This document shows positions 1 to 5,836 of a DNA stretch of 56,439 bases, piece after piece. A program made the position numbers and the translations under genes. This stretch comes from an uncultured virus (IMG/VR IMGVR_UViG_3300037225_000630) (lineage: Duplodnaviria; Heunggongvirae; Uroviricota; Caudoviricetes): IMG/VR virus record IMGVR_UViG_3300037225_000630, one strand, 5' to 3'. The stretch's first letter is position 1. Each line of letters starts with the position of its first letter. Under the pieces are notes generated by a model. The model worked only from the letters and a program-made list of their open reading frames with translations, made no database searches and was not told the origin of the DNA.

Positions 1-390
1 CGCATTCTCTACTGACATCCCCGTTCTCACACAAATTCCTACTGTCATAATTCCTGTTCTACCATGCCCACCCCAGCAATGTACTAGCACATTATTATTT
101 TTTATATAACCACATACTGTTTCTACAGCTTGATTAAATTTACTTATATCAGCAGGAACCTCAAAGTCTGGTATGGGATAGGATAATACTTTGGTTCCAT
201 AGGAAGAATAAACTTTGAATAAAGAAACAGTATCTCCATATAATCTTTTTAATTCTTCTTCCCCTAATAATACTATTGCTAATTTAATCTCATTTTCTTC
301 CATTTCCATTCCTAGCATTTCTGCCATATCTAGATTATTCGGAGCTGATGTCATAAATACTTTCACGTTATTTAATGTAAAATAGTCCAT
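1..390 (-). CDS. Dual-specificity/tyrosine protein phosphatase (CX5R), runs off the window edge
   Basis: Not in the ORF track. Manual translation from ATG at 390 (SD GAGGTG) gives MDYFTLNNVKVFMTSAPNN...YPIPDFEVP...VLVHCWGGHGRTG, the PTP/DSP active-site loop. Confidence 0.88.
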   Translation of the reverse strand, partial: MDYFTLNNVKVFMTSAPNNLDMAEMLGMEMEENEIKLAIVLLGEEELKRLYGDTVSLFKVYSSYGTKVLSYPIPDFEVPADISKFNQAVETVCGYIKNNNVLVHCWGGHGRTGIMTVGICVRTGMSVENA

Positions 391-416
391 ATTACACCTC
401 ATATAATTAGTCTAAT

Positions 417-453
417 AAAAAGAAGGACCGGGGGTCTTACCTTCCCCCGGCCC
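417..453 (-). terminator. Rho-independent terminator
   Basis: Minus strand GGGCCGGGGG-loop-CCCCCGGTCC followed by TTCTTTTT. Confidence 0.75.
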
Positions 454-513
454 GATTAATAGTTTTCAAGACTATTGTAAGTGCTGCTAGTATCCTTTCG
501 GGCCGAAGTCACC

Positions 514-638
514 CAATGATTTTTACTAAAAACGCCGAGTCTGCCACCGACTCTCCTCTCCCACAATAAGCTCTTTAATAAAGCTTACAGTGGGAAAGAT
601 TGGATTCGAACCAATGCCTACGTTAAATTATATCATTG
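514..638 (-). ncRNA. Circularly permuted tRNA-like RNA (YrlA/Y-RNA-like architecture)
   Basis: Order on the minus strand: CAAUGAU..AACGU, AGGC, T-arm AUUGG-UUCGAAU-CCAAU, acceptor CUUUCCC closed by a hairpin back to GGGAGAG, D-arm GAGUC-GGUGGCA-GACUC, GCGUU..AUCAUUG. Confidence 0.7.
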
Positions 639-767
639 TCGCCAATGCCTCTGTCACGATATAGACTTTAAGAAAACTGCCAAGCAATAAACTGATGGAA
701 TTACGTAGACTCTACTTGGGCGGCCCTAACGGGTATGCCCATTTACTGATACTACTACTAGCTCTTA

Positions 768-853
768 AGGAGTTACCCCCCAGAGCAATACTTATGCTAT
801 TGCGAAATATCCTCATGGATTAGCACAAATACTGCCATGGTGGAAGTAACTCC
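768..853 (-). ncRNA. Structured RNA domain (multi-stem junction) just 3' of the 250-aa gene
   Basis: 13-bp closing helix GGAGUUACUUCCA/UGGGGGUAACUCC enclosing CAUGG/CCAUG and GCAAUA/UAUUGC stems. Confidence 0.55.
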
Positions 854-860
854 AATTTAT

Positions 861-1613
861 TTAACTGTTGATATAGGCGAATATTTTATCACCTAACTTG
901 ACGTTTATTACCTGTGCCTGATTAGCAGCTTGACGAGCCTGTTTTACAGCTTGAATCAGAGTGTCAATCTTTGACAAAAGGTTTGACTTCTCTATAGGCT
1001 GTAGCCTACCTGACGTATAGGTAGTTTCGTACTTACCTACCTGGACCTCGTTCTGTACCATCTCAGTCTGTGCAGGGAACTTATCCGTTGCAGCTACTTT
1101 GGTGATAACCTCAAGCTTTTTGATAGAACGGAACTTAGTATCTACAGGAGCCACATAGATAGCTCTAGCCTGTGTAGAATCCTTAGTCCATGAACGAGCA
1201 GGGTCTACCGTTGGAATGTCCTTGTAGACTTCTCTAATCCTGACAAGATACTTCTCTAACGCAATCAGAGAAGTAGCAGAAAGGGTACCAAAGTCAGTAC
1301 CATCATCAAGCATGAGAGGGGCTTTAGCAGTACCAGAAGCATTCGTCTCTTCCTTGCTGATACTGGCATCAATGGCCTTGATAACCGCACCCTGAGCATA
1401 CTCTATCTTCTCTGCTACTGTGGTTACAATTTCTTTACTCTCTGGAGGAATTTGTTCCCCAGCAGCATCGAAAGAAATGTAATTCTTCAGTACACCATCG
1501 AACAAATCCTGCTTTTTAGTGAAGGTGTTTTTGCACTCCACATCCAAAATGTTCCTTGACTGCTGTACTAAATCTTGCTCCACGGCCAATAACTGATGTA
1601 ACATATTCCCCAT
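861..1613 (-). CDS. Conserved hypothetical protein of an actinobacterial/phage family (recalled as DUF7873-like, unverified)
   Basis: Motifs LHQLLAVE, GEQIPPES, LIALEKYL, IPTVDP..SW, ATDKFPAQ, SGRL, AVKQARQAAN, GDKIFAYI. Start placed at ATG 1613 behind SD AGGAG. Confidence 0.75.
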   Translation of the reverse strand: MGNMLHQLLAVEQDLVQQSRNILDVECKNTFTKKQDLFDGVLKNYISFDAAGEQIPPESKEIVTTVAEKIEYAQGAVIKAIDASISKEETNASGTAKAPLMLDDGTDFGTLSATSLIALEKYLVRIREVYKDIPTVDPARSWTKDSTQARAIYVAPVDTKFRSIKKLEVITKVAATDKFPAQTEMVQNEVQVGKYETTYTSGRLQPIEKSNLLSKIDTLIQAVKQARQAANQAQVINVKLGDKIFAYINS

Positions 1614-1660
1614 TTCTCTACTCCTACTATCCTCCATGCTTTGATAACATGGATTCCTTA

Positions 1661-1733
1661 CAGGAACGGTTGGTTTTGTTCCAACACCTACTCCGGGTTT
1701 AGCCTTTGTAGTTCTCCACTAAACTACGTCCCT
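1661..1733 (-). ncRNA. Degenerate tRNA-like cloverleaf (73 nt)
   Basis: Acceptor AGGGACG/CGUUCCU, D-arm UAGUUUAGUGGAGAAC, T-stem GUUGG/CCAAC with non-canonical loop AACAAAA, disrupted anticodon arm. Confidence 0.5.
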
Positions 1734-1981
1734 AAAAAAAGAAGGGGATTAAAACCCGCTAAGGTTTTTCACCACTATGAAACAAACCACCATTACTTGT
1801 TTGTCTCTGCCCTCATCTAGCATACTTTTTCGTCTAATTCCTGGTTTATAAGAACTATTGGGCATTCATCAGGAAGCTATCCTGATTAGTCTAGCGCTAC
1901 CCATGGCAGGTTTTGCCCTTGCACCTCATCTTTTTTACAGGACACCATCGACTACTTTTCTGCTACTCCCGGTCCCTTCTT
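1734..1981 (-). ncRNA. Putative ~250-nt structured ncRNA
   Basis: Begins ~7 nt after a -10 box. 5' AAGAAGGG pairs with 3' CCCUUCUU before a U run; internal hairpins such as AUCAGGA/UCCUGAU; no ORF. Confidence 0.55.
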
Positions 1982-1987
1982 ACTAAT

Positions 1988-2016
1988 ACTATACTGCTCT
2001 TTTCCTAAAAAGTCAA
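1988..2016 (-). promoter_or_regulatory. Sigma70-type promoter
   Basis: TTGACT-17 nt-TATAGT. Confidence 0.75.
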
Positions 2017-2146
2017 TAGGGTCATCTTCAGTAGGTGCTCACTTCATTTCTAATTATGACAACCCTTAATATTGATACTCCCATGCACCGTCTGTTAGGT
2101 TTATCTCAACCTATCCTGAGTAGCTACACCATAGGATAGGATTTAC

Positions 2147-2219
2147 TAGTCCCGGACGGATTTGAACCGACGATCCTCAGCGTGAAAGGCTGATGGCTTA
2201 GCCGCTCGCCTACGGGACC
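2147..2219 (-). tRNA. tRNA-Glu(TTC)
   Basis: Full cloverleaf GGTCCCG..., anticodon arm TCAGC-CTTTCAC-GCTGA, T-loop TTCAAAT; CCA not encoded. Confidence 0.93.
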
Positions 2220-2800: not shown

Positions 2801-2914
2801 TGCCATCAGAGGGAGTCGAACCCTCAATCCATTAAAGGCGGGGGATTAACCAAGATTCTCTAGAGGAAAACCCTCGTTAAGTCCCCAGTGTATTTCCATT
2901 TCCACCACGATGGC
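2801..2914 (-). tRNA. tRNA-Leu(TAA) with a 29-nt insertion in the anticodon loop
   Basis: GCCATCG/TGATGGC acceptor, Leu-type D-arm and variable arm, GGGGA-CTTAA[29 nt, 2848-2876]AA-TCCCC. Confidence 0.82.
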
Positions 2915-4999: not shown

Positions 5000-5719
5000 T
5001 TATTTTCTTCCCCTCCTCCAATTATTAGGTATTAGAGATTCTTTATATACAAATTTACTTTCAATACCATTTGTAATCCACATTTTTTGTGAATTAAGTT
5101 TTTCTAAAGATATTAGTAATCCTCTTTTCCACCCTTCAGGTATGGGTTTATTACTTTCTATTTGTTTAGATTCCTTACCATTGTTAACCCACATTGTTCC
5201 ATAATTTACTGCTGCTTCCCCTCTTCTGTATTCTCTATTATAGGATATAGCTCTTCCCTTTTTCCAGCCTTCAGGAATATCATTAATTCTACTAACTGAT
5301 TTGTTTTCTATTCCATTAGTAATCCACATTGTTCCATACCTACTATTTTTAGTACCTTGCTGATGCTTTCTTCTTCTTAATGTTTCCCTTTTCTTACTTC
5401 GGGCTTGGTCTGTTCTCGACAATTCTGTAAGCTGAGTTGAACCGCCTCTTCCTCCCGGTACAATATTATAGGTTTCTTCTTTCTGTATGAACACCTTATT
5501 TACAATAAGGGCTTCTTCTTTATACATCTCTTCCTCAGAATCAAAGAACTTTAGAATGGTTCTCTCAAAATTCTTTTTTCCTAAAACTGTCATGTCTCCT
5601 AAAAGTTTTGTACCTGAACCCATATAGTCATCATCAAGATTATAGGTTCTATGCACCCCCACATAAATTTTCCCATTTATTAGACATTTTATTTGATAAA
5701 GGTAGTATTTCTGTTTCAT
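5000..5719 (-). CDS. GIY-YIG homing endonuclease (Seg-like) with MWITNG repeats
   Basis: YYLYQIKCLINGKIYVGVH..YMGSG..E..YN catalytic domain; three MW(I/V)(T/N)NG...IPxxWxxG repeats. Confidence 0.88.
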   Translation of the reverse strand: MKQKYYLYQIKCLINGKIYVGVHRTYNLDDDYMGSGTKLLGDMTVLGKKNFERTILKFFDSEEEMYKEEALIVNKVFIQKEETYNIVPGGRGGSTQLTELSRTDQARSKKRETLRRRKHQQGTKNSRYGTMWITNGIENKSVSRINDIPEGWKKGRAISYNREYRRGEAAVNYGTMWVNNGKESKQIESNKPIPEGWKRGLLISLEKLNSQKMWITNGIESKFVYKESLIPNNWRRGRK

Positions 5720-5751
5720 ATACAATTAGTGTGTTGATGGTTCAGAAAGTA

Positions 5752-5827
5752 CAGAGGGAGAAGGATTCGATACCTTCAACACAGAAACCTTAATAGATTT
5801 CCTGCTCTAACCTTAAGCTATCCCTCT
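5752..5827 (-). tRNA. Atypical/pseudo tRNA (possible ATT anticodon)
   Basis: Acceptor AGAGGGA/TCCCTCT, D-arm GCTT/GAGC, 8-nt T-loop TATCGAAT, enlarged anticodon arm. Confidence 0.5.
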
Positions 5828-5836
5828 AAAATAGAA

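Follow-up and report, generated by a model that had tools for sequence, protein, structure and literature searches.

Passages of PMC4201824 describe the YrlA Y RNA as a T stem-loop, an acceptor closed by a loop and a D stem-loop, in that order, with a covarying Levitt pair. According to the same passages, RNase P cuts the YrlA RNA of M. smegmatis, whose acceptor has 7 bp, and this RNA acquires CCA. tRNA-like 3' processing elements are also carried by mammalian lncRNAs (10.1101/312249, in part). The RNA analysed here, which lies 3' of a DUF7873 gene in a viral genome, is Y-RNA-like in its design yet falls outside YrlA by motif, TROVE neighbour, Rfam match and length. A literature search over titles and the openings of abstracts showed no paper on the DUF7873-RNA pair, most subscription papers lying outside its reach. 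The passages of PMC10690425, PMC5737381 and PMC7824862 that were available do not describe the pair, and their supplements could list the RNA as an anonymous candidate.

The window, meaning the whole stretch of 56,439 nucleotides that was analysed, is approximately half of a 109.5-kb virus record with an estimated completeness of 62%. The record holds 19 tRNA genes, and RtcB, Pth2, NADAR and a weak RNA-ligase match were observed elsewhere in it. The DUF7873 gene and its RNA are on the minus strand, within the tRNA region of the record. The features discussed below are the following:

861-1613, minus strand: DUF7873 gene, 250 aa from ATG 1613 (258 aa with ATG 1637, the first in the ORF 1637-861)
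769-853, minus strand: long irregular hairpin immediately 3' of the stop codon, different among relatives and outside the conserved core
682-764, minus strand: first domain, with the short helix P1 (764-761/685-682), hexamer tracts (760-745 and 696-686) and a variable arm (740-717)
487-664, minus strand: head-bearing long arm, with helix P2b (638-632/520-514) and the equivalent of an anticodon stem (624-620/535-531)
537-615, minus strand: circularly permuted tRNA head, with T arm (615-599), acceptor (598-592/562-556) and D arm (553-537)
459-475, minus strand: detached anticodon-type stem-loop, 5 bp with the 7-nt loop CUUGAAA
415-453, minus strand: terminal hairpin and terminator-like 3' end, 10 bp with a conserved GG-N-Y-A/GGUA type loop, then a U tract
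1661-1733, minus strand: degenerate tRNA-like element with T loop AACAAAA and an irregular anticodon arm

The ORF product matched DUF7873 (PF25283) with an E value of 4e-67 and 226.8 bits against a cut-off of 27, covering positions 3-242 of the 244 in the profile. The start of the relatives aligned with ATG 1613, giving 250 aa, and the conserved 250-aa protein claimed in an earlier note on this DNA was thereby confirmed. Sequence searches of PDB, ESM Atlas, PHROGs, PADLOC and NCBIfam with the window protein gave no match beyond DUF7873. The predicted model (pLDDT 87, pTM 0.74) showed long helices and a long two-stranded β-hairpin (residues 155-198 of the 247-aa model). Fold searches of this model against PDB and BFVD gave no clear match; the top scores were a Z of 7.9 to a designed helical bundle and, as the best viral entry, A0A7M1RW91 with an E value of 0.016. 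An oligomer prediction with four DUF7873 copies scored 0.16, below the mark of 0.42, and was taken as evidence neither for nor against an oligomer. Among 142 DUF7873 sequences, ten Lys/Arg and ten aromatic columns were conserved at 80% or more, and the overall charge of the protein was not basic (median pI 6.6; 6.0 for the window protein).

The downstream RNA is approximately 350 nt long (766-420, minus strand). No same-strand ORF of at least 40 aa was found in the downstream region 415-860, and the GC content of the RNA core was 44%, compared with 34.5% for the record, in agreement with the ORF-free, GC-enriched RNA reported earlier. This region folded better than its shuffles (z −7.1), and 0 of 100 shuffles were as good. 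The terminator end described before was also recovered, as a 10-bp hairpin and U tract at 453-415; a terminator scan gave no call there because the loop has 9 nt. The 13-bp-closed junction that had been placed at 768-853, on the other hand, is actually one long irregular hairpin (769-853) that varies among close relatives, and it is possibly a processing or stabilising element. The variable arm of the first domain is the site at which two-headed relatives carry their second tRNA head. The internal loop of the long arm holds one hexamer (530-525), and a candidate basal helix of this arm (664-658/494-487) was recognised by eye only.

A covariance model built from 24 other loci, with the window excluded, found the head at 498-656 with 32 bits and an E value of 1e-5, and this was the sole match of the head model at E ≤0.001 in the record. 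The permuted tRNA mimic of the earlier note, here 615-537, was thus found again by a model that had not used the window. The window copy is atypical. CCA is not fully encoded after the discriminator (A591, then C590), the linker is in a long hairpin (589-563), the D arm is divergent and the tracts are weak, with AGU every 6 nt and the U of U-N-A-R in some units only. Its Levitt pair is G-C, and its 8-14 contact is altered. The detached stem-loop at 459-475 matched the anticodon arm of the phage's own tRNA-Trp (G000:C1:43849-43870) at 20 of 22 nt with an E value of 0.011, the anticodon being different. Contigs from four peat metatranscriptome libraries covered 594-789 and 594-767 in two studies and 250-554 and 254-524 in two others, and the predicted excised linker (555-593) was covered by none of them. 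This gap fits a two-piece RNA, but it was not counted because the contigs show neither ends nor strand and DNA may contaminate them.

Relatives of DUF7873 numbered 112 among 641 candidates, and further sources were 75 phage records, 31 metagenome loci, and viral and genome stretches, of which 80 each were kept from 357 and at least 594, respectively. With exact duplicates and loci offering less than 450 nt of downstream sequence removed, the head pattern (T arm, 7-bp acceptor, D arm) was observed within 600 nt after the stop codon in 150 of 183 related loci, and 44 of these 150 carried two heads. When the metagenome loci were left out, the count was 129 of 159. The controls were low, with 1 of 159 on the antisense strand and 3 of 154 upstream, and the density was 173 heads in 95 kb downstream vs 21 in 1.95 Mb elsewhere. 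Many of the misses were failures of the pattern (variant T loop, long acceptor-loop insertion) or RNAs displaced by 0.6-2.5 kb or to the upstream side. The earlier note had staked its proposal on a conserved structured RNA downstream of homologous genes; when the homologues were compared, a conserved, covarying RNA was present.

The T, acceptor and D stems had served to select the modules; the Levitt pair and the anticodon-stem helix are the independent tests. Structure counts were made on 130 modules with mutual identity below 80%. The Levitt pair was present in 125 of the 130 (G-C 67, A-U 58), and the anticodon-stem helix was paired at all five positions in 82; when the partners were shuffled, this happened in 8%, and in 15% at most. 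CCA was encoded after the discriminator in 75 modules and C74 in at least 116; the discriminator was A in 43, U in 41, G in 30 and C in 16, and the acceptor pairs varied freely. Among 24 phage RNAs, 20 of 21 pairs changed on both sides, and slid controls collapsed. Helix P2b reached at least 7 bp in 66% vs 24% (n = 108), and compensatory versions of 638-632/520-514 were read by eye in L173, L174 and L175. The family RNA is thus a tRNA whose anticodon loop has been opened and that is borne on a rod. The acceptor-closing loop takes insertions of 147-238 nt in L031, L072, L026 and L090, and in L031 an apparent whole ORF follows the acceptor 3' strand; such insertions are as expected if the acceptor-closing loop is cut out.

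All four stems of a tRNA are present, the opening is at the anticodon loop, and U is enriched at positions equal to 33-34, as in a permuted tRNA gene, from which a working tRNA would arise by splicing at the anticodon loop and opening of the acceptor. In permuted tRNA genes a 7-nt anticodon loop, with one fixed anticodon, is restored from the two ends, but in the DUF7873 RNA positions 32-38 vary, and neither a conserved 7-nt loop nor an anticodon is rebuilt. The long conserved flanking helices and the tracts also argue against such a gene, and no nuclease or ligase is linked. We regard this origin of a working tRNA as very improbable.

The RNA also resembles YrlA. Both RNAs have a head made of a T arm, a closed acceptor and a D arm without an anticodon loop, and both show the covarying Levitt pair (PMC4201824; 10.1101/312249, both in part). 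In both, a second module proposed to bind protein is at the anticodon end, and both occur in bacteria and phages; the 7-bp acceptor with CCA potential recalls the M. smegmatis YrlA in particular. The head model also picked up YrlA-type RNAs, and TROVE genes were present in three of the five genomes tested, so an ordinary YrlA Y RNA serving a Ro60 encoded elsewhere, with DUF7873 as a bystander or side partner, was considered. Compared with the YrlA of these passages, however, the RNA has DUF7873 as its partner instead of a TROVE protein, is 250-450 nt long rather than about 80-150, and has freely varying T, D and acceptor stems. It also carries 6-nt periodic tracts, often two heads, a detached anticodon stem-loop and a conserved terminal loop, which YrlA as described there does not.

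YrlA RNAs are bound by Ro60 in vivo and carry pseudouridine and dihydrouridine at tRNA positions. In the DUF7873 RNA, the Ro60 motif GNCGAAN0-1G was observed in 6 of 130 modules in the 45 nt that precede the T arm, anywhere in 22 of 130, and not in the window. A TROVE gene within approximately 4 kb of DUF7873 was found in only 2 of 201 loci (L196 and L063); the search covered 2.5 kb on both sides in 145 of the 201 and about 4 kb in 121. As controls, five of seven YrlA-type loci were positive, two of them overlapping. One of the seven TROVE seeds behind the search was a wrong frame, and the controls were scored nonetheless. No TROVE gene was found in the window's own record at its 62% completeness. 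The Rfam YrlA model gave no match at E values up to 10 in 380-2140, and none at or above its gathering score in 16 related loci. The TROVE-linked RNAs that were examined had no hexamer runs, and several had a UACUUC loop. An ordinary YrlA RNA is thus an improbable account of the DUF7873 RNA. Separately, L210 and L219 (G004) carry YrlA-type heads without hexamer runs in a genome in which no TROVE gene was found.

With two-piece tmRNA the DUF7873 RNA shares the order of T arm, acceptor 3' strand with CCA, spacer and acceptor 5' strand, and probably also maturation by RNase P and CCA addition, which is predicted for the DUF7873 RNA. An aminoacylated two-piece tRNA-like RNA could enter ribosomes with DUF7873 as an SmpB-like partner, leading to rescue or stalling. 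This would suit the 7-bp acceptor, the CCA encoded in 75 of 130, the intact elbow, the gene order, the weak partial Rfam matches and the elongated protein. Unlike two-piece tmRNA, the DUF7873 RNA has a full D arm and an anticodon stem, and it lacks alanine identity and a tag frame. G3-U70 was observed in 8 of 130 heads and the discriminator takes all four bases, so that no identity is fixed. No tag-like frame with an Ala-rich end was found within 120 nt after the D arm in any of 108 RNAs. The Rfam tmRNA scores were 18.7 of 84 and 15.6 of 47 bits, far under the cut-offs, and ARAGORN called no tmRNA in the window. Many second heads are also without CCA. Entry into ribosomes is accordingly an unlikely function of the RNA. 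The Rfam matches to cow-rumen-3 and snR42 were far below their cut-offs and were rejected.

The tracts are periodic. In 107 5' arms, U-N-A-R recurred at lag 6 in 227 pairs, whereas dinucleotide shuffles gave 44 (z 25), and echoes were observed at lags 12 and 18. After the D arm there were 65 such lag-6 pairs vs 13 in shuffles. Runs of at least three hexamers were present in 74 of 107 RNAs vs 10.6 expected. TRAP and Hfq rings bind short purine-rich units at fixed spacing in single-stranded RNA, one unit per oligomer subunit. The tracts of the DUF7873 RNA are likewise short, purine-rich and regularly spaced, which would suit a putative oligomer with one subunit per unit; no sequence or fold relation of TRAP or Hfq to DUF7873 was found. 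Two coding-related explanations of the tracts were rejected. Codons for an alternating peptide are excluded by tract frames that differ in 65 of 77 loci, and a Leu anticodon by positions that are not fixed.

A detached anticodon-type stem-loop was present 30-130 nt past the D arm in 30 of 86 single-head RNAs vs 1.5 in shuffles; it was found in 6 of the 5' control stretches and in 1 of 22 two-headed RNAs. Some of these stem-loops belong to a longer tRNA-like piece, and the loop of the window is the commonest type. Of 75 terminal hairpins, 59 had the loop GG-N-Y-A or GGUA, vs 2 of 34 control hairpins.

The question of whether the RNA acts in cis or in trans was addressed with five genomes that have no RNA beside the gene. 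Four of them hold eight RNA copies elsewhere (L215, L227, L228, L231, L233, L236, L239 and L244), at least four of these with runs of three hexamers, and the scanned neighbours of these unlinked copies were not DUF7873. In one such genome, a further DUF7873 gene is accompanied by an RNA of its own. In G007 no RNA was found among the 150 of 1851 candidates that were scored. Unlinked copies in four genomes favour an RNA that acts in trans. A separate promoter for the RNA showed no excess over shuffles (4 vs 2.3 of 25; 16 vs 16.5 of 84). The earlier note had taken the protein and a co-transcribed RNA to be one functional unit. Linkage supports the unit well, but co-transcription is not obligatory because unlinked RNA copies exist.

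A cis-acting 3' element of the DUF7873 message, with RNase P sites and repeats for self-control of the mRNA, would account for an RNA directly after the stop codon in most loci and for the lack of a promoter excess between gene and RNA. The lncRNA elements of 10.1101/312249 (in part) are a known example of tRNA-like 3' processing. Against a cis element are the unlinked copies, a copy upstream of the gene (L125) and copies 0.6-2.5 kb off behind insertions (L078, L108, L141 and L179). The elaborate arm, the second head and the terminal loop are also more than a cleavage signal requires. We therefore judge self-control in cis to be unlikely.

The same retention of the RNA when displaced or unlinked, sometimes in several copies, could be expected of a toxin-antitoxin pair. 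In a type III-like form, a toxic DUF7873 would be held by the RNA repeats until tRNA-directed processing or decay frees it. Type III antitoxin RNAs consist of long pseudoknot repeats that neutralise a toxic RNase. The two-part cassette without another partner, the patchy spread (3 of 151 genomes) and conserved His, Glu, Asp and Arg in DUF7873 agree with this reading. However, PADLOC, NCBIfam and PHROGs gave no match, some genes stand alone on their contig stretch, and the RNA is 3' of the gene with 6-nt units, unlike type III antitoxins. A toxin-antitoxin function is unlikely as well.

Two further structures of the earlier note were only partly supported. The helix 748-754/488-494 is the thermodynamic favourite in the window (pair probability approximately 0.8), but it is not conserved, being broken in L173, and analogous helices occurred in 23% vs 27% by chance (84 RNAs). 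In the family fold, which a crude constrained fold places 16 kcal/mol above the minimum-energy fold in the window, 748-754 is part of the repeat tract within the short helix P1. P1 itself was found in 64% vs 28% and could be anchored in just 36 of 108 loci.

The second structure is the upstream cloverleaf (1661-1733), by which the gene had been said to be bracketed by tRNA-like structures. It is real in the window, with 35.5 bits vs the Rfam tRNA cut-off of 29 in a local search, and it was absent from the whole-window scan and from ARAGORN. Its odd T loop is kept in the close relatives L172 and L173, at approximately 750 and 200 nt from the gene, and its anticodon arm differs again in L172. 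A functional tRNA was rejected for this element, which is without a canonical T loop and without a 7-nt anticodon loop on a 5-bp stem. It is not a trait of the family, however. A tRNA-like call in the 330 nt upstream was obtained in 28 of 184 loci, mostly for ordinary tRNAs, and L193 among the 28 is a slicing artefact. The upstream cloverleaf is clade-specific and probably not part of the DUF7873 system.

DUF7873 was observed in phages, Actinomycetota, Bacteroidota, Chloroflexota, Planctomycetota and others, and the system is also chromosomal in Streptomyces, Nocardia and others. A wide distribution in Actinobacteria and phages, as the earlier note had it, holds for presence in both groups and extends to further phyla, but the occurrence is patchy, with 3 of 151 Actinomycetota genomes sampled. 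A co-occurrence attempt in 150 Actinomycetota genomes was unspecific, the head model being positive in 72 of 150; this number includes two unpublished genomes, G208 and G308, on which no claim is based. Of the 30 top head-model loci in Actinomycetota, 28 were inspected; tandem tRNAs made up nearly all of them, with two YrlA-type loci and no DUF7873-type RNA. A scan of viral contigs with the single RNA sequence and a blastn search against phage records gave no matches.

No recurring neighbour of the DUF7873 gene was found except the RNA and an antisense shadow frame, and no repair or defence gene recurred beside it among the family loci. tRNA calls were near 42 of 72 viral DUF7873 loci and absent near the other 30. 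In 9 of 11 annotated phage records no CDS was annotated for at least 430 nt after the gene, and the other two had short CDSs there; one phage record annotates part of the downstream RNA as 'tRNA-Sup'. The next gene in the window (1-402, minus strand) is dual-specificity/tyrosine phosphatase-like (Tc-R-P, PTP-SAK) and is not a recurring neighbour of DUF7873. Domains of this kind often accompany RNA-repair genes.

From the sequence comparisons, DUF7873 and the RNA are probably partners. If the partnership is granted, a role as bait or tether is slightly favoured. Our proposal as a whole, which falls a little short of an even chance, is a Y-RNA-like ribonucleoprotein, made of DUF7873 and the downstream RNA, whose tRNA mimics would serve as bait or tether in conflicts over tRNA damage. 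Sequence comparison supports three parts of the RNA, namely a tether domain whose single-stranded U-N-A-R tracts have a 6-nt period, a long arm, and one or two heads, each with a complete elbow and a 7-bp acceptor. Several DUF7873 chains would sit on the tracts, at approximately one chain for each hexamer, and would protect the RNA. As in M. smegmatis YrlA, RNase P would cleave on the 5' side of the acceptor 5' strand, and trimming or extension would bring the opposite end to CCA; the RNA would then consist of two pieces and have a mature tRNA-like end. For the window this predicts 562 as the 5' end and CCA following 591. The particle could then offer this end, often together with the detached anticodon loop, to enzymes that act on tRNA. 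Candidate targets are tRNA-cutting toxins and sensors, or else enzymes of processing and repair. In this phage, the likeliest purpose would be to keep translation going while the host attacks tRNA. The varying acceptor identity and anticodons argue for recognition of shape, against decoding. The tRNA genes, RtcB and Pth2 of the record and the tRNA calls near 42 of 72 viral loci agree with the proposal. The near-neutral protein, the 30 viral loci without a tRNA call, the atypical window copy and the rarity of the detached loop in two-headed RNAs count against it. RNA repair or counter-defence, as suggested in the earlier note, may be the role of the unit. No repair gene recurs beside the DUF7873 gene, and counter-defence makes less sense where the system is carried on chromosomes, as in Streptomyces and Nocardia.

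A broader and rather doubtful form of the bait or tether proposal is that a hexamer-counting protein oligomer, unrelated to Ro60, displays disassembled tRNA, as one or two CCA-ended heads and a separate anticodon loop, for use as decoys or sensors against tRNA-attacking enzymes in phages and bacteria, with DUF6847 maybe as a second branch. At two chromosomal loci, L247 and L248, DUF6847/DIP1984 genes (PDB 3kdq) are followed by RNA with a T arm and CACA-type repeats (1927-2200, plus strand, in L247). Like DUF7873, DUF6847 is a small helical DUF protein with repeat RNA 3' of its gene, of 151 aa compared with 250 aa. The hhalign probability between the two was 0.6% with a shallow profile, and fold searches gave no clear match. 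No T arm was found downstream of DUF6847 in the five viral loci with downstream sequence. DUF6847 and its T-arm RNA are possibly a parallel protein-RNA system.

The analysis gives DUF7873, a named DUF family, a candidate RNA partner, a predicted binding code (U-N-A-R per 6 nt) and predicted cut sites. These predictions can be addressed in cultured systems, namely Streptomyces, Gordonia, Rhizobium, Arthrobacter and Ralstonia phages. Use of a YrlA-type permuted head with a second, unrelated protein would bear on what the head is for, and DUF7873-type RNA may account for some of the unannotated gaps and false tRNA calls in phage tRNA clusters.

Several other elements of the window and its record were observed. 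Short contigs over approximately 1815-1972 were present in three of the four RNA libraries, within 1815-1985 (minus strand), for which no Rfam match above cut-off was found. The element lies behind a promoter-like site at 2016-1988. L172 and L173 both retain the sequence of this site and the first 30 nt, and the remainder is kept in L172 only. The 1815-1985 element is possibly a separate small RNA. At 2801-2914 (minus strand) there is a tRNA whose anticodon loop contains a 32-nt insertion, and at 5751-5828 (minus strand), beside a GIY-YIG gene (5000-5725), ARAGORN called a tRNA with anticodon AUU, a call that Rfam did not list. Both are possibly intron-split tRNAs. Elsewhere in the record, at G000:C1:38908-38978, ARAGORN called a tRNA with anticodon CUA, yet TAG ends 18 of 80 long ORFs; this element would be a suppressor or a pseudo-tRNA.
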